Of a DNA stretch of 64,000 bases, positions 45,017-64,000 are shown piece after piece (the stretch's first letter is position 1; every line of letters starts with the position of its first letter). The notes beneath the pieces are model-generated. The model was not told the DNA's origin and made no database searches. It was given only the letters and a program-made list of their open reading frames with translations. The translations under genes and the position numbers were made by a program. This stretch comes from an uncultured delta proteobacterium (GTDB lineage: Bacteria; Myxococcota_A; Polyangia; Polyangiales; Polyangiaceae). The stretch lies in contig CAVOKF010000007.1 of assembly GCA_963696385.1 (NCBI GenBank), positions 1,312,001-1,376,000 on the forward strand, in the 5' to 3' direction.

Positions 45017-46966
45017 GTCGGGTAGGCCGGGGATGTTGTCTCCCCGGCCCCCCTTCGGATCCGGACGTGCGCAATTCACGCATCCGGCTCTTCGGTCACG
45101 GGTTCGCTGCGCGCGGGAGAAATGGGTGAGCGATGCGAGGCGGCGGGAGCGGGTAGCGCTCCAGCAGAAGCCGCATTCGCTTCCAAGGCATATGGCGTCG
45201 TTGCGACCGGCGGTTGAGCCACCGGCGCCACAACGCAATAGTCTTGCGGCAGAAGAGCGCGATGGCGCGGAAATTCCCGGTGATTCCGTAATATCCGTAG
45301 TGACCACGCAGCTTTTGCCCAAGTGCCTTCTGCTGCTCGCGGATGGCGTCGTGCCGGTGCTCCCTGCACCATTGCGCGACCCGCGACACCGCTCTCCGGA
45401 AGCGGTCTTTGGCTGTTTTGCGCATGACAATCCACTTGCCAGAGCGAGCTTTGCCCCAGTAGTGCGTGAAGCCGAGTAGGTCGAAGCTGCCAGGACCTCG
45501 GTCGCCGCCATCGACTTTCGATGAGCGACGGTCAGGGCGCTGAAACTCCACCAACCGCGTCTTCTCGGGATGCAGCGCCAGGCCGTACGCACCCAATCGC
45601 TTCGGCAGCACGTCCAGCACCTTGCGGGCATCCACTTCATGCGAAAACAAAAGCACTGCATCGTCCGCGTAGCGGACGAGCAGCGCCTTGCCCGAAAGCC
45701 TTGGTTTAACTTCGCGCTCAAACCAGACGTCGAGCACCTCGTGCAGGAAAATGTTCGCCAGAATCGGCGAAATCACCCCGCCCTGCGGTGTGCCCGTTTC
45801 CGGATACGCAATGGCTCCGTCTTCGAGCACGCCCGCATTCAACCACTTTCCGATGAGCCGCAGCAGCACTCCGTCGTGCACCCTGCGGCGTAGGACTTCC
45901 CGTAATTTCCCGTGGTCCAGGACGTCGAAGAACTTGCGTACGTCGACCTCGAGGACCCACCCGCCACCCATCATTACCGCTTGATTCTGCAGGGTCTCGA
46001 GCGCTTGATGCGCCGAGCGCCCCGGCCGGAAGCCGTACGAGCAGTCCAGAAAGTCCTGCTCGTAGACCGCCTCCAGCACCATCGCGACCGCGCGCTGCAA
46101 TACCTTATCTTCGAAGCTGGGAATGCCGAGCGGTCTCGTTTCCGAGCCGCTCCCCTTCGGGATATGGACTCGCCGCACCGGCGGTGCTCGGTACGTACCA
46201 GACTTCGCGCGTTCGAGAAGCGACTGCAGGTTGCCCTCCAGGTTTTCCGCATACTCTTGCGCGCTCTGCCCGTCTACGCCACGAGCCCCGTCCTTGCGTG
46301 TGCGTCGGTACGCTTCGCGGAGCCAGTCGGTATCGATGTGATGGGCAAGCGTTCGGAACGCCATATCGGGCGCGTCCTTCGCCAGCTTTGCTATCCGTTC
46401 GAGTTTCGTTGAGATGGGAATTGAGTTCGGCGCCTCGGCCATCGTTCCCTCCAGCGGTTCCGTGTTTTCCGGTGCCGCCCTTTGCTCGGCGGGGTCCCTT
46501 GGGACGGTTCCCCCGCGTCGTCGCTCCTACTGCGGCACTCCGACTTCCCGTCGCCCATCGCGCTTGGCTTCGTTGCCTTCGCCGCGCACTACCGCCGCAA
46601 TTCAACAGCCGGAGGCGCCGGGATATCCCAGGTTCCTGGACCGTCCTTTGCGTACATGCCCTGCTGTTCACCCCGGCAGAGTCGACGGGCCAGGCCTTCG
46701 GGCTCGCCCGACTTTTCGGCACGTCGATGTTGCCTTCCGCGTTTCAAAACGCGTCGGCCTCCGCGAAGAGACGGATTTCGAGGCTCTTTGCACGGCCTGC
46801 ACGCCCGCTGTGTACGCTTCGCAGCCGCGATTGCTCGCGAACCACGCAACACTCGCTTCCGGCTGGCGGCCCCGCCTTGGCCGGTCGGGAATTTCACCCG
46901 CGGACGGTTACGTGAGGTTTCCGCTCTTACATGTCTTCCTCCTCACCCAGGCTTCGCCTGGCGCAC
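45017..46966 (-). mobile_element. Group II intron I1, intact (class E-like)
   Basis: 5' GTGCG at 46966; domain V GAGCCGGATGCGTGAATTGCGCACGTCCGGATC; 3' end CCTACCCGAC; EBS1 TTGAAA (46742-46747) pairs with IBS1 TTTCAA. Confidence 0.95.
45096..46442 (-). CDS. ltrA: Group II intron reverse transcriptase/maturase, no endonuclease domain
   Basis: [34 protein letters not shown], domain X (LRGHYGYYG). Confidence 0.96.
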
Positions 46967-55056: not shown

Positions 55057-57899
55057 TCGGGTCGACCCGGTCGAACGACCGAAGCCGCCGATCCGCCAGG
55101 TCGCGTGGGATCGGGTGGGCGCGTGCCCTACCATTGGCCGCGTGCATAGTGACCGTGGGGTCGGCGACGGGCGGATGCTCGAAACCCCCCGCGAAGCCCG
55201 TGGACGGCCTCGAGCTCGTCGTCTCGACCGAGGGGCTGAACGCCCCGCAAGACTTCGACGACATCAAGCTCGAGGTGAGCGACCAGGCGGACGGGGGAGG
55301 CTGGAACAAGATCTGGGACAACGACTACACGCTGCCCTCGACGGAGGTAACGCTGCCGGCGACCTTCACGCTGTTTGCGGGGCAAAGCCCCGACGAGGTG
55401 CTCATCGCCGTGACGGCATATCAGCACGGCCAGGGTGGGACCCCGGTGGTGCAGCGAGTCGCGCAAGTGCAGGTCCCGACCGACCGCCTTGCAGTGCTGT
55501 ACCTCGTCCTGGCGCAGCAGTGCGAGGGGCAAGTGGTCGAGGCCGGCGACGGGGGCGAGCCGATGTCCCTATGCGCGAGCGGAGAGAGCTGCCAGCCGAG
55601 CACGGGCGTGTGCGGGTCGAATATCATCCCGCCATCGGCGCTGCCGACGTATACGCAAGGGCAGAGTCTCGACGCGGGGCCCGACGGCGGGTTGGGCAGC
55701 GTGGTGGCCAGCATGCCGCCGAGTTCGGGCAGCTCAGCAACCAGCAGTTCGGCGTCAAGCAGCTCGGGAGCGGGGGGGACGAGCACATCCACGAGTACGG
55801 GCACCGGCACGTCCACCGGCACGGGCGCGGACGCGGGGCCGAGCGTCACCGGTACCGCCACGGGCACCGGTACCGGGTGCACGGATGCGTGCACCGCGGG
55901 TTTGACCGAATGTATCGACGCGGGCGTGCAGACCTGTCAGACCCAAGGCGGCTGCACGCAGTGGGTCGCGACGGTCACGTGCGGCAGTCACCAGACGTGC
56001 GCGGTCACTGGCGACATTGCCGCATGCGGTTGCACTTCGACGATCTGCACCACGACGGGAGCGGTGTGCCAGGACGCCCAGACGGTTGCGACATGCGCGA
56101 AGGACGCAAACGGTTGCCTCGACGTCGCGTCGACCGTGACCTGCACGTCTCCGGAGACCTGCGCAGCAGGCGATGGTGGCCTCGGCGCCGCGTGCTCGCT
56201 GACGTGCAGCAGTAGCTGCACCAAAGGGCAGGCGTCGTGCGTCTCGGGCGATCTGGCCACCTGTACGCAGGGGATCAACGGTTGCTCGGCTCTCGGCACG
56301 CCGGTCGCGTGCGGCGCCCACCAGAGCTGCACGGGAAGCGCTTTGGCGGCGACGTGCACGTGCAACCCGTCAACCGTTTGCATCGAGATCGGGACCGCGT
56401 GCGACGGGACCGGGACCGTCGCGACATGCGACAAGGACGCGAACGGTTGTTTCTTCGCTGCATCGACGCAAGCATGCGCGTCACCGGAGTCGTGCGTGGG
56501 GGCCCCGCCGAATGCGAAGTGCGCGCTCACTTGCACCAATAGCTGCACGTCGGGCCAGACGTTATGCGTCACGGGCGGCCTCGAGACGTGCACGCTGGGT
56601 ACCGACGGCTGCTGGGCGTACGCGCCGGCGGTGGCGTGCGGGGCGCACCAAAGCTGCACGACGAGCGCCGAGGTGGCGGCATGCACGTGCAACGTTAGCT
56701 CGACGTGCACGGTCGTGGGGAACGCGTGTGAGTCCACATCCACGTTGGCAACGTGCGCACAGGACGCGCAGGGGTGTTTCTTCGAATCGCAATTGACGAC
56801 GTGCACCAACGGCGCGTGCAGCGCTGGAGCGTGTTGCAGCAACGCGTGCACGATCGGAGCCGGTCAGTGTGTTCCGGGTGGGCTGGAGACGTGCACGCAG
56901 CAGCCGAATGGGTGCGCGGCATGGGGAAGTACTGAAGCCTGCCCGGCAGCGATGCCGAATTGCACCGCAGGAGCCTGCGATGCGCCGCCGAGTTGCCAAG
57001 TGAGTGCGGTGGGCACGACGAATTGCGGAACGGCCAGCGAAAGCTGTTGCACGAGTCTAGAGGTGACGGGCGGGACGTACGATCGGACGTACGCGAACAG
57101 CGGCACCGGACCGACGGGCGTAGCCGATCCGGCGATGGTGAGCGGGTTGCGCATGGACAAGTATTTGGTGACGGTGGGTCGTTTTCGGCAGTACGTGAAC
57201 TACCTTACGGGCAACACGGGCGCGCCGCCGGCGAACGGCAGCGGTATCCATACGCATTTGAATGGGGGGCGGGGACTGGCCAATAGCGGAGCTGCGGGGG
57301 CGTTCGAGACGGGCTGGGACGCGACGGACTGGGACACGTACATCGCCACGGGGGCTGGCGCGCCTAGCACGTGGAATACGTACCTGTCCGATTGCGGCCT
57401 ATCGAGCACGTGGACGATTTCCGCGGGCACTCATGAGAACCTGCCAATTAATTGCTTGGATTGGTACCAGGCCTATGCATTCTGTATTTGGGACGGGGGC
57501 TTTTTGCCCAGCGAGGCCGAATGGGAATACGTGGCGGCAGGCGGTAGCCAGGAGTTAGAATATCCGTGGGGTTCTACGGATCCCGGGACCAGCAGCCTGT
57601 ACGCAATTTACGAGAACGACGACATGACCGCGGCGGTTGGCTCAGCGAGCCTCGGCGCTGCCACTTGGGGCCAGCTAGATATGGCGGGCAATGTCGACGA
57701 GTGGAACCTCGATTGGTATGCAACCTACGTCGATCCGTGCGCAGATTGTGCCTACCTTTCCTCAACCTCCAATCGCGTGATCCGGGGCGGCAGTTGCGAG
57801 TCTACCGGCACGTCGCTGTTGCAGCCGCCCAGCCGCAGCGACGACTTTCCTGCAGATATCGAGGAGTGGATCGGGTTCCGGTGCGCCAGAAGGCCCTGA
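55053..57899 (+). CDS. Large lipoprotein with Cys-rich tandem repeats and a C-terminal FGE domain
   Basis: ATGA coupling to the PEGA gene; TGGC lipobox-like; about 3.5 repeats of ~105-110 aa; FGE motifs ending GFRCARRP. Confidence 0.92.
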   Translation: MIGSTRSNDRSRRSARSRGIGWARALPLAACIVTVGSATGGCSKPPAKPVDGLELVVSTEGLNAPQDFDDIKLEVSDQADGGGWNKIWDNDYTLPSTEVTLPATFTLFAGQSPDEVLIAVTAYQHGQGGTPVVQRVAQVQVPTDRLAVLYLVLAQQCEGQVVEAGDGGEPMSLCASGESCQPSTGVCGSNIIPPSALPTYTQGQSLDAGPDGGLGSVVASMPPSSGSSATSSSASSSSGAGGTSTSTSTGTGTSTGTGADAGPSVTGTATGTGTGCTDACTAGLTECIDAGVQTCQTQGGCTQWVATVTCGSHQTCAVTGDIAACGCTSTICTTTGAVCQDAQTVATCAKDANGCLDVASTVTCTSPETCAAGDGGLGAACSLTCSSSCTKGQASCVSGDLATCTQGINGCSALGTPVACGAHQSCTGSALAATCTCNPSTVCIEIGTACDGTGTVATCDKDANGCFFAASTQACASPESCVGAPPNAKCALTCTNSCTSGQTLCVTGGLETCTLGTDGCWAYAPAVACGAHQSCTTSAEVAACTCNVSSTCTVVGNACESTSTLATCAQDAQGCFFESQLTTCTNGACSAGACCSNACTIGAGQCVPGGLETCTQQPNGCAAWGSTEACPAAMPNCTAGACDAPPSCQVSAVGTTNCGTASESCCTSLEVTGGTYDRTYANSGTGPTGVADPAMVSGLRMDKYLVTVGRFRQYVNYLTGNTGAPPANGSGIHTHLNGGRGLANSGAAGAFETGWDATDWDTYIATGAGAPSTWNTYLSDCGLSSTWTISAGTHENLPINCLDWYQAYAFCIWDGGFLPSEAEWEYVAAGGSQELEYPWGSTDPGTSSLYAIYENDDMTAAVGSASLGAATWGQLDMAGNVDEWNLDWYATYVDPCADCAYLSSTSNRVIRGGSCESTGTSLLQPPSRSDDFPADIEEWIGFRCARRP

Positions 57900-57974
57900 T
57901 CGCAGCCGGAAACGGCTTTGGTGGCACTGGCGCGGGCATTCTTGATCGGTGAAGTGCGAGTGCCGGCACGTGCG

Positions 57975-58059
57975 TGGACGCGGTCGTCTCGGAGCGCAGC
58001 CCACAGGAACCCGACGAGCTCGCGTGCGATCGCGATGACGATCTTGTTACTGTTTTTGC
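57975..58059 (-). pseudogene. IS110-family transposase C-terminal fragment
   Basis: KNSNKIVIAIARELVGFLWAAL. Confidence 0.7.
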
Positions 58060-58153
58060 CAAATCGGTTCGCCGATTCAGCGATAACGAACGCCCCTAAG
58101 ACGCGATATGTTTCCGCGCCCGCTTCCGCGGCTCTTCGTCGACCGACGCACTT
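58060..58153 (-). repeat. 110-bp repeat, copy E (left-type), cut by the host intron
   Basis: CAAATCGG...CCCCTAAGACGCGATATGTTTCCGCG...GCTCTTCGTCGACCG matches copy A. Confidence 0.88.
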
Positions 58154-58197
58154 GTCGAGTAGCCCCGGGCGCTTACTGGCCCCGGGGCCCTCGCCGG

Positions 58198-60199
58198 GTA
58201 GGGTCGAGGACTGGCGCGGTGGCGTGCAGGGGGGCCAATCTGTTTCCGTCCCTTTCGGTTGACGGTGCCTCACTTGCCTCTCCATCGCTCCGTTTCCAGT
58301 CCCCGCCTCGTCCAACGGAGCAGGCGGATTTCCCGCACTCCGCTGTCCTGCCAGCTTCGCGCCAAGGTTTATGGGACCTATCGTGCTGGGAGCGCTTTCG
58401 GCATGTCCTGCCGCGGAGCCACTCGGTACCCATTGAAGAGCCCGAGCGTTCCGTAGAGCCATGACCTACTCCACCTCTTCCAGCCGAAACCGGGCAGGTT
58501 CCGGGCACGCATCAGATGTCGCCTCACCTTCTTCTCCACCCAGTCCTTGACGAAGCCGAAGCATCGGCTCGAGTGACCCACTCGAAAGTATTGCACCCAT
58601 CCGCGTAGAATCGGATTGATAATCTGCACCACCCGCTCCACCGGCTGGGACTGAAAACGTCGGAACACGTCCTTGAGCTTGCGCAGCAGCGCCGTCCGTT
58701 TCTTGCGTTGCGGCGTCAAATGCGGACGCCATTCACCGCGGAGACTGCGGATGCGACGAAAGTCAAAGCCGAGAAATCCGAAGCTCTCGTCTTTCGAGAG
58801 GTCCACGAGTCGACTCTTGTCTTCGTTGATTTCCACGTGAAGTTTGCTGAATTCTTCCCGGAGTCTACGGTTGACCGCCTGCAGCAACCAGGCATGGCGT
58901 CGGTAGGCGTCCACGAGGACCACAAGATCGTCAGCAAAGCGCGCATATTCGACATATGCGTACTTGCCTTCGGCCGTGACCTGTTTGGCGCGCTCGAGCA
59001 TCCTATCGACCTCATTGAGGTACAGGTTGCTGAGCACGGGTGAAATTACCCCGCCTTGGGGAACTCCCCTCTTACCGGATGCTTTGAGAATCATCGACAG
59101 GAGAGTCATGACCGCATCGTCGTTCACGCGCTTTGCGACTTTTTCGAGCAACACATGATGCCGAACGTTGTCGAAATAGGCTCGCAAATCGATGTCGAGG
59201 ATCCGGGTCTTATTCCTGACGACGGCCTCCGCTACCCGGCGGACCGCGCCATGCTGCGACCGCTTCGGGCGGTAGCCGTAGGACCCCGGTTGGAAGTCAG
59301 CTTCGAAAATGGGTTCCAGAATGAGCTTGAGTGCCCCCTGGACCACACGGTCGCGGATTGCAGGTATCGAGAGGACGCGAGTTTTGCCCCCATCCTTCGG
59401 TATCGCTTTCCGACGGTTCCGCATGGGTCGATACTGATGCGAGACTAGTTCGTCCCGTATCTGCCCGAGGAACTTCTCGACGCCGCTTGCCTCGATGGCC
59501 TCGAAGGTGACGCCGTCGATACCCGGCGCTCCATCGTTCTGCTTAACCATCTCGTAGGCGGCCTCAATCGTTTCCGTCTTGCAGACGTGGACGTACAGTC
59601 CCCAGAAACGCCAGGTTGGTTCAGCCTTCGCCTTCGCGTATATCCTCCGTCTCAGGTCCTGCAGACTAATAGGCGCCTTTATCATATCGCCCCTGCCTTC
59701 CGTTTCGTAAGAGGAATTACCAACAGCAGGGCCGCTTCGCTCCACGGGCATTACCCCGCTTCGACGCTACTACCGGCCCCTCCGCCACCCTTTCGCCTTC
59801 GGCCGACTTCCCGGGGTTGCCGGTTATACGACCTACCTTTTTCCGTCGATTTCTCGTCGGGGCGAGGAGGGCTTCTCCAGTTTCCAGCGCGTTCTTGTCT
59901 CCGTGCCGTCGCTACCACCCCGCCGGAGCGGTCCACCACGTCAACCAGTTTGTGGTGTGCCGTGCTGCCTTCGCCCTCCGGTTGAGGGCTCGGCCTCCGG
60001 GGTTTCTCCTTTTCGGGGCCACCTCTGCGTTCACTTTCGTTACGGCCCGGGGACTCGCTCACCATCCTTGCGATGGCTTTGTCAGTGGGCTTTAGGTCAT
60101 CGATTTCTCTCCTTCCTACCACTCAAGCTACGAGGCCTCTGGTTCTTAGCCTCGGTGGGACTGGCTCCCACAAAACGCGCCAGCCTTAGCTGGACGCAC
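58198..60199 (-). mobile_element. Group II intron I3 (class F-like), inserted in domain V of intron H
   Basis: 5' GTGCG at 60199; its own domain V GCGGAGTGCGGGAAATCCGCCTGCTCCGTT; long domain VI ending GACCCTAC. Confidence 0.92.
58378..59685 (-). CDS. ltrA: Group II intron RT/maturase of I3
   Basis: [38 protein letters not shown]. Confidence 0.95.
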   Translation of the reverse strand: MIKAPISLQDLRRRIYAKAKAEPTWRFWGLYVHVCKTETIEAAYEMVKQNDGAPGIDGVTFEAIEASGVEKFLGQIRDELVSHQYRPMRNRRKAIPKDGGKTRVLSIPAIRDRVVQGALKLILEPIFEADFQPGSYGYRPKRSQHGAVRRVAEAVVRNKTRILDIDLRAYFDNVRHHVLLEKVAKRVNDDAVMTLLSMILKASGKRGVPQGGVISPVLSNLYLNEVDRMLERAKQVTAEGKYAYVEYARFADDLVVLVDAYRRHAWLLQAVNRRLREEFSKLHVEINEDKSRLVDLSKDESFGFLGFDFRRIRSLRGEWRPHLTPQRKKRTALLRKLKDVFRRFQSQPVERVVQIINPILRGWVQYFRVGHSSRCFGFVKDWVEKKVRRHLMRARNLPGFGWKRWSRSWLYGTLGLFNGYRVAPRQDMPKALPAR

Positions 60200-60793
60200 A
60201 ACCGGACAAGGAGATTTCCACCATCCGGCTCTTCCGCTGAGCTGGCTCGTGGGTTACGTCCCCCAGATTCGGACCTTGATGCGGGGACGCGGGAGAGGAA
60301 GACGCTGCAGAAGCTCGTCATACTTTTCCCAGGTGAGGTGCGCTTGTTGGCTCCGACGGCGGAGCCACTTATACCAAACTCGCCTCGTCTCTTCGGCAAA
60401 CAGAAGCAGACTGCGAAAGTTGCCGCTGATGCCGAAATAGTTGAAGTGACCTTGGATGCGCCTCGTGAGCGCGGCGTGCTGCTCCTTGACCGGAAGGTGT
60501 CGATGGCGACGACACCAGTCCGCGACGGCTTGAATCGACCGTCGTAGGCGCGCACTCCGTGTCTTGCACGTCATTCCCCATCGACCGCTTCGGGAGCGCT
60601 GCCAGTACAGCGTGAATCCCAGAAAGTCGAAGGTGGCCGGACCCTTGCCGCCAACTTGCTCCGCCGGCGGACGCCGGAAGGGCAAGAGGCGGGTCTTGTC
60701 CGGGTGCAGGGTCAGCCCGAAACGCCCCATCCGCTTTCCCAGAACGTTCCATCACACGCTCCGCGTCGTCCTGATGTTCGAATGTCATCACGA

Positions 60794-62672
60794 GGTGAGT
60801 AGGCTGGGGGAATTTCACCCCCAGCCTCTCTCAGAACCGTACTTGAACGTCTCCGCTCATACGGCTCCCATCATCCAACCGCCGGCTTCAGCCCCAGCAA
60901 CTGCCAGTGCGCGAAAAGCCGAGGCTCGCGGCGACCGATGCCTCCGAGCCAATGCTCAGCTCGGCGACGGTGTCGTCGCAGCCTTTTGAATTTCCTCATG
61001 GCCCAACGGACGAGCAATCCGTTGAAGTGTCGGAAGACCGAGTGCAGGGCAGACTTGTAGAACCGACCGTAGTACTGGATCCAGCCCCGAAGGACTGGGT
61101 TCCACATGCGTGCCAAGTCGTCGATGGCCTTGTCGCTCCGCAGAGGAATCCGCCAGCGTCGCATTTCCTGTCGCATCCGCTTCGCCGCGTCGTTGCTGAC
61201 GGCGGGGGTGAAGTTCACGAAGAACTTCCCCCGCCGATTCTTCGACCGGCGAGGACGGAACGTGTACCCGAGGAAGGTAAACTTCTCCTCGGGATAGCGC
61301 CCCTTCCTATCGTCATCTTTGCAGTAGACGATGCGCGTCTTCTCGGGATGCACTTCCAATCGGCAGTGCGCGAGTCGACGCTTGATGTTCGCCAGGACCT
61401 GCTGTGCTTGCTTCTCCGTCTTGCAGTGCGCCACAATATCGTCCGCATACCTCTCGAACGGCACGTCCGGATGCGTTGTGCGCATCCATTCGTCGAACGC
61501 GAGATGCAAGAAGATATTTGCCAGAAGAGGACTCGCTACCCCGCCTTGCGGAGTCCCCTTCGTTCGCGGTACCCGCGTGCCATCCTCCAGTTGCACGGGG
61601 GCTTCCAGCCACCGCTTTACATAGAGAAGGACCCACGGGCACGGCGTGTACTTGCCGACCGCGCGCATTATCAGCGCGTGGTCGAGGTTGTCAAAGAAGC
61701 CTCGGATGTCCAGGTCGATGACCCAGTCGTATCGCCAGCATCGCTGCCGGGTCGCCGCCAGAGCATCGGCTGCAGACTTCCGTGGCCTGTACCCATAGGA
61801 ATCGGGGTGGAAATGCGGCTCCACTTCCGGTTCCAGATACATCTTGACGACCGTCTGGGCGACCCGGTCTGAAACGGTCGGTATGCCCAGACGCCTCTCG
61901 CCTCCGTCTTTCTTCGGTATCGCTACCGACCGAACGGGCGGCGGGAAGTACGTTCCCGACGACATGCGATTCCAAATCTTATAGAGGTTGTTCTTCAGAT
62001 TCTTCTCGAACTCCTCGATGGACTCGGAATCGACTCCGGCCGCTCCGCCGTTCGCCTTCACCCGCTTATACGCTTCCCACACCGCCATTTTGGAAATGCT
62101 ATACGGCTTGGCTTGGCTCGGCGGCTCCTCCCGCTTCCGCGGTTGACCGTCGATACAAGCCGAATGACGCGACCCCCTCGCTCCATCGGGTTTCCCCGGC
62201 TTCTCCGCTACTACGGGCCGCTCCGCCCCTGTGCCTCGCATCGGTACTCTCATCCTCGTGGGGCCTCCACTTGGACTTCTCCCTTAACATCGAGGCGACA
62301 GGTTCCCACGTTCCACACAAGGGCCTGGTCTCGGTTCACGCCACCTTTATGCCGGATGCCGCCCAGGCCAGCTGCAGGTTCCTCCTGGGCTTGTCCCGGG
62401 CAAACGACTCGTCCCGGTTTTGACATCGTTCCTACGCTTTCGACACGTTTCCGGTGGTTCATTCGCTTCGTCTCCCGAGGCCTCACCTGACGCGATCATC
62501 GCCGCGCCTTTTCCATCGACGCGCACCACCCCGGCTCTTTACCGGAGCAGCTCGTGGTGGTTTGGAGCCGGTGCCTGCCGACCGACCCGAGGGGCCTACC
62601 CTCATCCCTTGTGCAGCAAGGCAGCGTTTTAGTTGACCATTTCGGTCTCCCTTCCGCGCCGTCGTGGCGCAC
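60794..62672 (-). mobile_element. Group II intron I2 (class D, RmInt1-like), inserted immediately after the YADD codons of H
   Basis: 5' GTGCG at 62672; domain V GAGCCGTATGAGCGGAGACGTTCAAGTACGGTTC; 3' end CCTACTCACC. Confidence 0.94.
60871..62253 (-). CDS. ltrA: Group II intron RT/maturase of I2
   Basis: KPYSISKMAVWEAYKRVKANGGAAGVD, GTPQGG, RYADD, PRLFAHW. True start probably near 62130. Confidence 0.95.
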   Translation of the reverse strand: MRVPMRGTGAERPVVAEKPGKPDGARGSRHSACIDGQPRKREEPPSQAKPYSISKMAVWEAYKRVKANGGAAGVDSESIEEFEKNLKNNLYKIWNRMSSGTYFPPPVRSVAIPKKDGGERRLGIPTVSDRVAQTVVKMYLEPEVEPHFHPDSYGYRPRKSAADALAATRQRCWRYDWVIDLDIRGFFDNLDHALIMRAVGKYTPCPWVLLYVKRWLEAPVQLEDGTRVPRTKGTPQGGVASPLLANIFLHLAFDEWMRTTHPDVPFERYADDIVAHCKTEKQAQQVLANIKRRLAHCRLEVHPEKTRIVYCKDDDRKGRYPEEKFTFLGYTFRPRRSKNRRGKFFVNFTPAVSNDAAKRMRQEMRRWRIPLRSDKAIDDLARMWNPVLRGWIQYYGRFYKSALHSVFRHFNGLLVRWAMRKFKRLRRHRRRAEHWLGGIGRREPRLFAHWQLLGLKPAVG

Positions 62673-63563
62673 AGTCGTCCGCATAACGCACGAGGTGAGC
62701 TTCCCCGCGCAGACGCGGCTTGACATCGCGCTCGAACCACAGGTCCAATACGTAGTGGAGATAGACGTTGCCGAGTATCGGCGAGAGCACGGACCCTTGC
62801 GCTGCGCCCGTGTCCGGCTCGGCGTATTCCGAGCCGTCGAGCACCCCAACGTGCAAGCACTTGCCAATCAGCCGCATCAGCGACCCATCGGCCACCCGAA
62901 TTTGGAGCATCTCCTTCAGCTGGGTGCGATCCAAGCTGTCGAAGAAGGACACGACGTCGGCCTCCAAAATCCAGCTCACCTTACCCTGATGCGCAATACG
63001 GTCGAGGGCTCGAATGGCGTCATGGGCACCGCGACCGGGCCGGAAGCCGTACGAGCATTCCAAAAAGTCCTGCTCGTATATCGCCTCCAGCACTTCGCGT
63101 AGGGCGTCCTGGACCAACTTGTCCTCGTACGCAGAAATCCCAATCGGCCGTGTCTTGCCCCTTTCCTTTGGGATGTGAACACGCCGGATTGGCTGATGGC
63201 GATACTGCTTCGCCACCAACCGCTCGTGCAGGCTTCGGAGATTTTCTTCCAGGGCCTGCCCGTACTGCTCCTTCGTGACCCCATCCACGCCGACCGCCGC
63301 ATCGTTGCGCATGCGCTTGTCGGCTCGCATCAAGGCGGGCACATCGATAAGATGTGCCAGCGAGTGGAACCGTCCTTCGGGCTCCCTTTTCGCTCGCTCC
63401 ACTACCTTCAATAGTTTCGGTGACATGTCTTCCAACGTCGATGCGTCGGGCATGGTTCCGTCCTGAAGTTCAACTCAGCACGGGCCGCCTTTGCTCGGCC
63501 GGGTCCGGGGTGCCAATCCGTTCCCCGACGTCCACGCTCGTATGCGGCCCTCCGACTCCCCCG

Positions 63564-64000
63564 CTTCAGCGGCGCCTTTGGAGTGATCCACTTCGGGTCA
63601 CCGAAGTGATCCACCCGTCGCGGGGATCGGGGTGTCAGCGGCGGCGGGATCGTGACCCACCCCTTGCTATCGGAAAGGGCGCGCGTCAGGGCCGGTGGCT
63701 CGCACCCGAGATGCTCGGCCGGGCGAAGGGGGGAACCGCCAAGACGCCGGTAGGACTCGCGAGCGCTCGGGCCCGCGGCTCAGTGCGGGAGTCCGGCTAT
63801 CAGAAGGTGTTGTCGTCGGTGGGATCGTGCGCGGGTGGCATCGCCGCTTCGCGGACGGCGTGGCGGTAGCGCCAGAGCGTTTCGCGCAAGGTGGCGGCCC
63901 TGCGGCAGATCGTGTGGGCGAGGAAGACGACAGGGCCTTGGTCGCGTGGCCTATGGAAGTCGTCGATGAGCGTCTGGTGCTCGGCCAAGAGCGCGTCGGC
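63564..64000 (-). mobile_element. Right end of a second, slightly diverged copy of IS21 element B (runs off the window)
   Basis: Reverse-complement match to ~39887-40323, including the accessory ORF tail AHDPTDDNTF. Confidence 0.93.

Follow-up and report, generated by a model that had tools for sequence, protein, structure and literature searches.

The minus strand of the window (the whole 64,000-nt stretch of DNA that was analysed, from a soil and peat bacterium) carries a nest of mobile elements with a total span of 10,441 nt, in which a host group II intron, H, is interrupted by two guest group II introns, I2 and I3, and by an IS21-family element. The nest is very probably genuine and built by site-specific retrohoming. 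Its anatomy and exact boundaries, the natural empty sites, the covariation of EBS1 with the 5' exon and the recurrence of the same pairs in diverged relatives are all observed directly. The coordinates originally predicted for H, I2, I3 and the IS hold on the minus strand (Table 1), and the three introns have one and the same orientation, as had been claimed. A correction is needed here: the 5' end of H and its domains D1-D3 lie outside the window, the intron starting with GTGCGACC at C7:1380594.

Table 1. Features of the intron nest, in window positions
Feature	Positions	Strand	Description
H 3' exon	58058..58153	-	larger part of the ~110-nt dispersed repeat that is the H homing site, GCGAGTAGTAAGCCCA/AAGTGCGTCGGTCGAC...
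H_c	58154..58197	-	last base of domain V, linker, domain VI with bulged A; 3' end CUCGAC
Guest intron I3	58198..60199	-	2002 nt, GUGCG...CCUAC
I3 RT/maturase ORF	58378..59751	-	457 aa, intact; RVT_1 and GIIM
I3 candidate EBS1 AACCGGA	59977..59983	-	complementary to the domain V 3' strand of H (UCCGGUU)
H_b	60200..60793	-	C-terminal part of RT/X ORF (weak GIIM, 17.5 bits; stop codon 60254-60256) and 32 of 33 nt of domain V (60231-60200)
Guest intron I2	60794..62672	-	1879 nt, GUGCG...CUCACC
I2 RT/maturase ORF	60871..62253	-	460 aa, intact; RVT_1 and GIIM
I2 EBS1 loop AGUCGUU	62403..62409	-	complementary to GACGACU (D-D codons and first base of F)
H_a	62673..63563	-	domain IV leader and H RT ORF codons 1-260 (ATG 63453; YADD codons end 62674)
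IS target-site duplication copy CGGGGGAG	63556..63563	-	8 bp
IS21-family element, right end	63564..64000	-	437 nt in window; continues to C7:1380056

The host intron has the features of a group II ribozyme: a 5' GUGYG, a D1-D4 core (Rfam D1D4-6, 103.6 bits; gathering score, 49), a domain V with the AGC triad and bulge, and a domain VI with a bulged A. When the guest is removed, the resulting D5-D6 forms a pair of hairpins that include the bulged A (-48.4 kcal/mol) and resembles the contiguous D5-D6 of the paralog H' and of 60 out of 64 metagenome relatives. H_c is almost identical to the corresponding part of L076, an uninterrupted relative whose D5-D6 is contiguous. Uninterrupted close relatives of H themselves score close to the Rfam gathering score of 40 (L076, 35.7 bits; L043, 38.7; H', 40.5). 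The H lineage, of the D1D4-6 type, is common in soil and sediment metagenomes.

Domain IV of H contains an RT/maturase ORF. In the C6 copy it encodes 439 aa with a reverse transcriptase domain (RVT_1, E 4.1e-30), a weak GIIM match (17.5 bits against a cut-off of 23) and no endonuclease domain; against the PDB the H RT matches group II RTs (E 1e-36). H_a, which is 99.3-99.8% identical to both C6 copies, covers positions 1-155 of the 205 in the RVT_1 profile (E 1.1e-20). The ORF of the window copy is both split by I2 and frameshifted relative to C6 by an extra A near 60747, 46 nt beyond the I2 site. Neither this base nor a second single-base insertion, at 63507, is present in any of the four metagenome runs searched, which suggests that both are local consensus errors; the frameshift may thus be an error of the assembly.

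The smaller guest, I2, lies in the H ORF exactly where it had been placed, within the YADD codons, with the flanks ...TAT GCG GAC GAC T and TC GTG ATG. Its exact removal rebuilds the YADD-FVM reading frame. I2 starts with GUGYG and has a D1-D4 core (Rfam D1D4-2, 91 bits at 62485-62603), domains V and VI (Intron_gpII, 60.1 bits at 60794-60869, gathering score 40), an EBS1-IBS1 pairing and an RT+X ORF (RVT_1, E 8.2e-42; GIIM, E 7.6e-16), in which no endonuclease domain was detected. It ends in ACC where its relatives end in GAC, with no difference in length. The best PDB match of its RT is the GsI-IIC RT (162.2 bits), which, together with the small ribozyme of about 500 nt, presumably hints at class C.

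The second guest had been predicted to split domain V of H. I3 does lie inside this domain, with GTCCGGTT on its 5' side and CCGG on its 3' side, but it sits before the last nucleotide and not in the middle of the domain. Exact removal of I3 rebuilds domains V and VI of H, as folding of the rejoined sequence confirms. I3 likewise has a GUGYG start, a D1-D4 core (Rfam D1D4-4, 111.3 bits at 60035-60173), domains V and VI, and an RT+X ORF (RVT_1, E 5.7e-33; GIIM, E 3.5e-15) with no detected endonuclease domain; the GsI-IIC RT is again the best PDB match (169.5 bits). The match to its domain V, at 58253-58347, reaches 35.5 bits and so stays under the gathering score of 40, because its domain VI is very long; the fold places a bulged A in this domain 7 nt from the 3' end.

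The EBS1 assignments were examined by comparison with relatives. An alignment shows the I2 loop to match the intron's own 5' exon in I2, L017, L023, L024 and L027 and to fail in L021, and the I2-like intron of L109 pairs with its own exon using two G-U pairs; the loop thus fits in six of the seven introns compared. For I3, the EBS1 of the guest in L084, GATCCGGA, covaries with its own 5' exon, TCCGGATC, including a 1-nt change in length. Complementarity between exon and intron did not reach significance in a crude test: with shuffled exons, the observed match length was reached in 140 of 200 trials in the case of I2 and in 79 of 200 in that of I3, so that the assignments rest on covariation in a few relatives and, for I3, in one. 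EBS2 was looked for and not found; GCAUAA, a candidate in I2, was rejected, as it is also conserved in relatives with other exons.

The joints expected with and without each guest were looked for in Logan contigs from four public metagenome runs on peat and soil (X1, X4, X5 and X7); none of the runs found to hold the stretch is listed as RNA. Both guests have natural empty sites at which the frame or domain V is whole. The joint 60793 to 62673, which skips exactly the 1879 nt of I2, is present in X1 and X7, and the joint 58197 to 60200, which skips exactly the 2002 nt of I3, in X4, X5 and X7, with zero ambiguous letters at either. The sister copy of H at C6:18186-22244 is also contiguous through the I2 site and carries I3, and X5 record 21 joins the 3' end of I2 to H_b and to H_c without I3. 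H is therefore found with I3 only (C6), with I2 only (X5) and with both guests (the window).

It could be asked whether the nest arose falsely in the assembly, through the joining of mobile elements that are repeated. Several contigs of the genome do terminate in the IS, and the insertions at 60747 and 63507 are missing from all the runs. But each of the five junctions (IS/H_a, H_a/I2, I2/H_b, H_b/I3 and I3/H_c) is bridged by contigs of independent runs or assemblies. The occupied intron junctions are crossed by X1 record 4 (60764-62702), X4 record 12 (60202-60831) and X1 record 2 (58168-60149), that of H_a with I2 also by the independent metagenome contigs L070 and L071, and that of the IS with H_a by X1 record 7 and X5 record 24. 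A chimera is thus largely refuted and extremely improbable. None of the metagenome contigs spans both guests, so that their co-occurrence in one H rests on the assembly and on the absence of the I3-less joint from X1.

The proposal that the three introns belong to different lineages holds, as shown by RT identities of 27%, 29% and 31% and by three different Rfam D1-D4 families (D1D4-6 for H, D1D4-2 for I2 and D1D4-4 for I3). Intron hyperparasitism, as originally suggested, also gains support. In this genome the guests occur only inside H copies, full-length I2 once and I3 twice, and diverged relatives of the guests are found at the same two sites of diverged H-like introns. In L109, an H-like RT (79% aa identity) holds an I2-like intron (70% nt identity; D1D4-2, 84 bits) after GAT GAC T; in L084, an H-like intron (69% aa identity) holds an I3-like intron (76% nt identity; D1D4-4, 67 bits) directly after domain V. 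Most guest relatives in whole genomes are at non-intron sites: among their readable junctions, 0 of 5 (5') and 0 of 9 (3') were intronic for I2, and 0 of 1 (5') and 0 of 7 (3') for I3. Intron targeting is therefore a trait of a sub-lineage.

The exons of H are an intergenic repeat of about 110 nt, which is dispersed over the genome in dozens of copies. The 16-nt 5' exon of H has 20 exact matches, of which 15 are empty sites with flanks unique on both sides, four are occupied by H and one holds only the first 11 nt of H. Outside this 16-nt target the sequences 5' of the various H copies are unrelated.

The element upstream of the H ORF was correctly assigned to the IS21 family. It is 4,493 bp long, has the same orientation as the introns, and possesses an IstA (524 aa, with an HTH and a Mu-transposase C-terminal domain), an IstB (383 aa; PF01695, E 6.3e-55), perfect 13-bp terminal inverted repeats and an 8-bp target duplication. 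The second copy of the duplication is at C7:1380057-1380064, and the reference copy of H in C6 has the sequence once. The IS also carries ORFs for a ParB-like (336 aa) and a NinG-like protein (156 aa), which are not known to be typical of the family. Five further full-length or nearly full-length copies are present in the genome, and the IS-less form of H occurs in all four metagenome runs.

By combining these data, a very probable history of the nest can be described. H would home into the dispersed repeat, while I2 and I3, being RT-encoding introns that lack an endonuclease, would take H itself as their homing site. The I2 EBS1 would pair with the YADD codons of H, and the I3 EBS1 with the 3' strand of H domain V. 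Endonuclease-less introns are known to insert by reverse splicing with priming at the replication fork, and the guests probably did so here. Selection on H would hold both targets constant, and each new copy of H would supply one more of each, making H a stable, self-multiplying landing site. The guests would be gained and lost independently of each other, as is seen in the copies with I3 only, I2 only or both. The IS would have entered H later.

A different history, in which H received each of the two guests a single time and the composite then spread as DNA, whether through segmental duplication, through recombination or because the twintron moved as a whole, is improbable. The region is indeed rich in repeats, IS copies and rearranged H fragments, and the I2 junction is common to C7 and C6b, whose H_a segments are the closest pair (2 differing sites, against 5-6 for C6a). 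Such copying is difficult to reconcile with the two I3 copies, which differ at 0 of 2002 nt although their hosts, about 1% apart, differ at ~22 of ~2041 nt. Identical guests within diverged hosts point instead to independent, recent insertions. The finding of every occupancy state and the unrelated 5' flanks of the H copies also speak against it, as does X4, where I3 follows another 5' exon, with only GTCCGGTT in common.

The nest had also been read as an ordered cascade, in which I2 and I3 would splice first from one transcript, rebuild the RT frame and domain V of H, and thereby gate the splicing and mobility of H. Several observations are consistent with this: each guest has an intact ORF and the full set of ribozyme signatures, all elements share a single orientation, and the frame and domain V are whole again once the guests are taken out. 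Sequential splicing of a twintron has been demonstrated in Trichodesmium (PMC4649490). The C6 copy, with an intact 439-aa ORF and I3 alone in domain V, could work as a true twintron. Guest splicing would presumably have to precede splicing of H. As stated, nevertheless, the cascade is not supported for the window copy and appears unlikely. This copy holds the 4.5-kb IS, which cannot splice out, and the +1 frameshift, which may be an assembly error. I2 and I3 need no order relative to each other. Nor would the H maturase require removal of I2, since the intact, 99%-identical RT at C6:18825-20144 could act in trans. Furthermore, H lies in an intergenic repeat, so that there is no selection for its splicing. 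With the non-splicing IS and the possible frameshift, H is probably disabled in the window copy, and the nest there thus probably arose as a side effect of guest homing and does not operate as a cascade.

The arrangement has precedents. Nested homing into introns and a guest in domain V are already described in PMC4424553, PMC2882425 and PMC8393795, and group II introns nested in one another have been recorded in Methanosarcina, Thermosynechococcus, Trichodesmium and Euglena, in the last with the guest in domain V. The present nest adds a well-documented case but no new mechanism.

In Methanosarcina acetivorans (Dai & Zimmerly 2003; via PMC4424553 and PMC2882425) the nest acts as a perpetual homing site. 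As here, group II introns have repeatedly homed, in a site-specific way, into other group II introns' sequences or ORFs, and the exons are without a host gene. The archaeal introns are related and the guests lie in ORFs, whereas the bacterial nest unites three distant RT lineages (27-31% identity) and has one guest that targets ribozyme domain V. The Thermosynechococcus elongatus twintrons TeI4::TeI3 and TeI4g::ISEL2 (Mohr, Ghanem & Lambowitz 2010, PMC2882425) also have identical inner introns within diverged outer ones, the mark of recent independent insertions; other mobile elements are targeted, and one outer intron is interrupted by an IS. The TeI3 guests are ORF-less and related to their hosts, in contrast to I2 and I3, which both encode their own RT and strike the RT active-site codons and domain V.

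A parallel to the I3 site is found in the Euglena gracilis psbF twintron (Copertino & Hallick 1991; via PMC8393795), where a group II intron lies inside domain V of another, so that the catalytic hairpin can be rebuilt only once the inner intron is gone. The Euglena introns are degenerate, ORF-less and located in a protein-coding gene of an organelle, whereas those described here are complete retroelements, lie in an intergenic repeat of a bacterium and show presence/absence polymorphism. Trichodesmium erythraeum T.e.I7/I8 (Pfreundt & Hess 2015, PMC4649490) is similar in being a bacterial nest of two RT-encoding introns that are only distantly related, an arrangement which metagenomes contain as well. 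In that case the guest is in domain I, the nest interrupts a protein-coding gene that is conserved, and experiments demonstrated sequential splicing, while the nest around H is known from its sequence.

In the window, which covers C7:1312001-1376000, all elements of the nested structure are on the minus strand. Its length is accounted for by 2,057 nt of the host group II intron H, two extra single bases, 4,493 nt of an IS21-family element, a duplication of 8 nt, 1,879 nt of the guest intron I2 and 2,002 nt of the guest intron I3. The original prediction had placed an IS21 inside H, and this element has indeed been found to encode IstA (524 aa) and IstB (PF01695, E 6e-55) and to have terminal repeats of 13 bp that match perfectly, next to a target duplication of 8 bp. 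It also carries a ParB-like ORF (336 aa) and a NinG-like ORF (156 aa). Five further full-length or near-full-length copies are present in the genome, and several assembly contigs stop inside copies of the element. The junction between the element and H_a, the adjoining piece of H, is bridged by metagenome contigs, and H lacking the element occurs in all four metagenome runs compared.

Coordinates of the nest, its components and the other H-type introns of the genome (window positions unless a contig, C2, C6 or C7, is named)
Feature	Position	Strand	Description
Nest	C7:1370154-1380594	minus in window	10,441 nt
H 5' end	C7:1380594, beyond window		GTGCGACC; Rfam D1D4-6, 103.6 bits
IS21-family element	63564-64000, on to C7:1380056		4,493 bp, between the H 5' part and 63563
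I2	62672 to 60794	minus	starts GTGCG; D1D4-2, 91 bits (62485-62603)
I3	60199 to 58198	minus	starts GTGCG, ends CCTAC; D1D4-4, 111.3 bits
H 3' end	58154		CTCGAC
H' (paralog of H)	45017-46966	minus	D1D4-6, 127.4 bits; Intron_gpII, 40.5 bits; 448-aa ORF; no guests
H copy	C6:18186-22244		I3 at the same place; no I2, no IS
H copy	C6:39041-40477		H to the I2 site (40460), first 17 nt of I2, then unrelated single-copy DNA
H 5' fragment	C2:79553-80241

Both guests carry complete ribozyme signatures and intact ORFs. I2 scores 60.1 bits with the Rfam model Intron_gpII at 60794-60869 (gathering score 40), and its intact ORF of 460 aa matches RVT_1 (E 8e-42) and GIIM (E 8e-16). The I3 ORF is likewise intact (457 aa) and contains both domains. 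Domain V of I3 scores 35.5 bits, under the gathering score, because the domain VI that follows is unusually long in the predicted fold; its bulged A lies 7 nt from the 3' end. The reverse transcriptases of H, I2 and I3 are pairwise 27%, 29% and 31% identical, and the three ribozymes match three different Rfam D1-D4 families, in agreement with the three separate lineages that had been proposed. In PDB searches each of the three proteins matches group II reverse transcriptases of solved structure, and Pfam finds an endonuclease domain in none of them.

The flanks of the guests are exactly those of the original prediction: TAT GCG GAC GAC T and TC GTG ATG for I2, within the YADD codons of the H reverse transcriptase, and GTCCGGTT and CCGG for I3. 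I3 had been placed within domain V of H. Domain V is interrupted at its end, not midway along the hairpin: I3 is inserted just before the last nucleotide of the domain, the C of the closing G-C pair.

Exact removal of the guests restores the YADD-FVM frame and domains V and VI of H. The H copy at C6:18186-22244 is a natural form lacking I2, and its reverse transcriptase ORF runs unbroken for 439 aa through RYVDDFVM, as expected if excision of I2 repairs the frame. The rejoined domains V and VI fold (ViennaRNA, -48.4 kcal/mol) into two hairpins, one for each domain, that of domain VI having a bulged A, and parallel the contiguous domains of H' (46966-45017). Of 80 metagenome loci kept as relatives of H, 13 were dropped because the reverse transcriptase match stopped short of the C-terminus and 3 more because fewer than 60 nt followed the ORF. 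Domain V is contiguous in 60 of the remaining 64, as far as each contig reaches, and in one of these relatives (L076) domains V and VI are nearly identical to those of rejoined H. Uninterrupted relatives score 35.7 (L076), 38.7 (L043) and 40.5 bits (H') with RF00029, so that rejoined H would sit at the gathering threshold of 40 like the rest of its family.

Logan contigs were compared with the window for four public metagenome runs of peat and soil, from four studies; the stretch is contained in 20 public runs, none recorded as RNA. A joint lacking I2, with exactly 1879 nt skipped (60793 to 62673), is found in runs X1 and X7, and a joint lacking I3, with exactly 2002 nt skipped (58197 to 60200), in X4, X5 and X7. 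The occupied junctions are likewise bridged by contigs of these runs. One contig (X5 record 21) passes from the 3' end of I2 through H_b directly into H_c, the piece of H downstream of I3, and therefore copies of H with I2 and without I3 exist. Two independent metagenome assemblies (L070, L071) show an identical junction of H_a with I2, at 99.6-99.8% identity. Assembly chimera is largely excluded as an explanation of the nest; none of the contigs spans both guests. Contig depths, which are not copy numbers, are higher for I2 than for H in X5 and X7, and lower for I3 than for H. In the window copy of H an extra A near 60747 puts the reverse transcriptase out of frame. Neither it nor the additional C at 63507 occurs in any of the four runs, so both may be consensus errors.

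H itself resides in a dispersed repeat of about 110 nt, which is present in the window at 58058-58153 and at about 70 other places in the genome, its copies having unique flanks. Within the repeat, one hairpin (CCGCGG...CCGCGG) is variable and another, at the 3' side (AATCGG CGAA CCGATT), is conserved, and copies cluster every 1-4 kb on contigs C2, C4 and C6. The 16-nt 5' exon of H has 20 exact matches, of which 15 are empty, four are followed by H and one by the first 11 nt of H only. A truncated H lies at C7:1394721 (minus strand), where no more than the initial 11 nt of H (GTGCGACCAGG) stand between an H target site and unrelated DNA. In the copy at C6:39041-40477, unrelated single-copy DNA begins right after 17 nt of I2, and this I2 has therefore been truncated by a deletion or rearrangement. 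As H in the window lies in an intergenic repeat and adjoins a convergent plus-strand gene with an FGE-sulfatase domain, no host gene needs its splicing. The ORF downstream of H (57752-58153), considered as the C-terminus of an IS110-type transposase, has no Pfam match, and this assignment was rejected.

Two additional copies of the 44-nt H_c, each with the downstream repeat, lie in the genome at C6:105634-105677 and C7:1434044-1434087. In each, unrelated DNA (...CTTCCAG) stops precisely where the 3' splice junction of I3 would be. A relative of this upstream DNA, at C7:238419, has a different continuation. The two pieces may have arisen when I3 copies recombined and the intron was then lost precisely.

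The targets of both guests are explained by predicted base pairing of an intron loop, EBS1, with the 5' exon. In I2 a hairpin loop, AGUCGUU at intron nt 264-270, is the complement of GACGACU, and in an alignment the same loop position is complementary to each intron's own, differing 5' exon in I2 and the relatives L017, L023, L024 and L027, and not in L021. Nucleotides 217-223 of I3 (AACCGGA) pair with UCCGGUU, the 3' strand of domain V of H. The case for EBS1 rests on covariation, because in a crude search against shuffled exons the complementarity was not significant: of 200 shuffles per guest, 140 (I2) and 79 (I3) reached the observed length. Two further candidates were rejected: an EBS2 of I2 (GCAUAA, intron nt 321), a motif kept in relatives with different exons, and a second EBS1 of I3 (AACCGG, nt 375), unchanged in an I3-like intron (L084). 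Introns without an endonuclease domain are described as priming reverse transcription from replication-fork strands (PMC4424553), and insertion of I2 and I3 would be primed in the same way. The I3 copies of the window and of C6:18186-22244 are 100% identical (0 differences in 2002 nt) and their H hosts show about 22 differences in about 2041 nt. Because the guests are identical and the hosts diverged, the two copies point to recent, separate insertions, an argument also made for T. elongatus (PMC2882425).

It is possible, if somewhat doubtful, that H-type introns are dedicated hosts, tracked over evolution by a D1D4-2-type guest lineage at YxDD and a D1D4-4-type lineage in domain V, with EBS1 changing along with the target. 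Within this genome I2 and I3 are found inside H only. In a metagenome locus with an H-like reverse transcriptase (L109, 79% aa identity), an intron 70% identical to I2 in nucleotides (D1D4-2, 84 bits) follows GAT GAC T, at the homologous nucleotide, and its loop pairs with the exon via two G-U pairs. In L084, an H-like intron with 69% aa identity, an intron 76% identical to I3 in nucleotides (D1D4-4, 67 bits) stands directly after domain V; this guest carries GATCCGGA, opposite TCCGGATC in its exon. D1D4-4-type guests are also found in the domain V tetraloop of two H-like hosts (L047:3480-3710, 50.5 bits; L051:1695-1920, 48.2 bits), and another relative (L069) is interrupted after GTCCG. Altogether a domain V guest is present in 4 of the 64 H relatives, and an I2-type guest at YxDD in 3 of the 80 loci, two of the three being I2 itself. 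Relatives of I2 and I3 occur in 9 and 10, respectively, of 401 genomes of the phylum, counts that include this genome. Among their readable junctions none is an insertion into an intron, all being non-intron sites, which counts against an intron-targeting habit of the lineages as a whole. In H' (about 67% nucleotide identity to H in the ORF; second copy at C2:76034-78000), both the domain V 3' strand GTCCGGAT and the YADD codons GAC GAT G are unlike the targets of I3 and I2. Soil, peat and sediment metagenomes contain H-type introns, of the Rfam D1D4-6 type, in abundance. If these introns are dedicated hosts, the EBS1 of I3 may effectively mimic the 5' strand of the host domain V. The nest would then represent a natural host-parasite system consisting wholly of ribozyme retroelements, and the presence/absence polymorphism in the wild would allow one to measure how hyperparasitism among selfish elements proceeds and what it costs.

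Some further observations concern the range of guests. The L047 and L051 guests appear to start with GAGCA, not GUGYG. In X4 record 11, at window position 60207, the I3 5' end stands on a different 5' exon with only GTCCGGTT in common with H; H is therefore not the only host sequence of I3. In L107:2040-2326 an H-like reverse transcriptase ORF diverges 10 codons past YADD at GTGCGCAGC, and the contig ends 286 nt further on; the divergence may mark a further guest intron, inserted close by.

The original prediction envisaged a cascade in which the guests splice before H. It is reasonable to suppose that the domain V guest must leave before H can catalyze its own splicing, and removal of the inner intron before host catalysis is stated for other twintrons (PMC4424553, PMC8393795). 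I2 and I3 need no mutual order. The intact H reverse transcriptase encoded on C6 could act in trans, and the window copy bears an IS incapable of splicing out.

The nest is an unusually well-documented bacterial case of introns upon introns, with exact boundaries, and with natural empty and occupied alleles in metagenome runs from four studies. The guests occupy the two most constrained sequences of their host, the reverse transcriptase active site and domain V, and the case supports a published idea, that the conserved parts of mobile introns serve as safe, self-multiplying homing sites. The YADD codons and the domain V 3' strand offer cloned-target assays for the retargeting of introns without an endonuclease. 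No new mechanism emerges from it. Nested arrays of up to five introns arise in M. acetivorans via site-specific homing into intron sequences (PMC4424553), T. elongatus contains twintrons as well as an IS within an intron ORF (PMC2882425), sequential splicing is described for a Trichodesmium twintron (PMC4649490), and in the founding twintron, Euglena psbF, the guest interrupts domain V (PMC8393795). Among the titles and abstract openings from a narrow search of the twintron literature, none reports a bacterial case of a domain V guest, which is not proof of absence. To these systems the nest adds a bacterial host with two guests that encode reverse transcriptases, belong to different lineages and occupy the two most constrained sites, together with polymorphism at the population level and base-pairing evidence.
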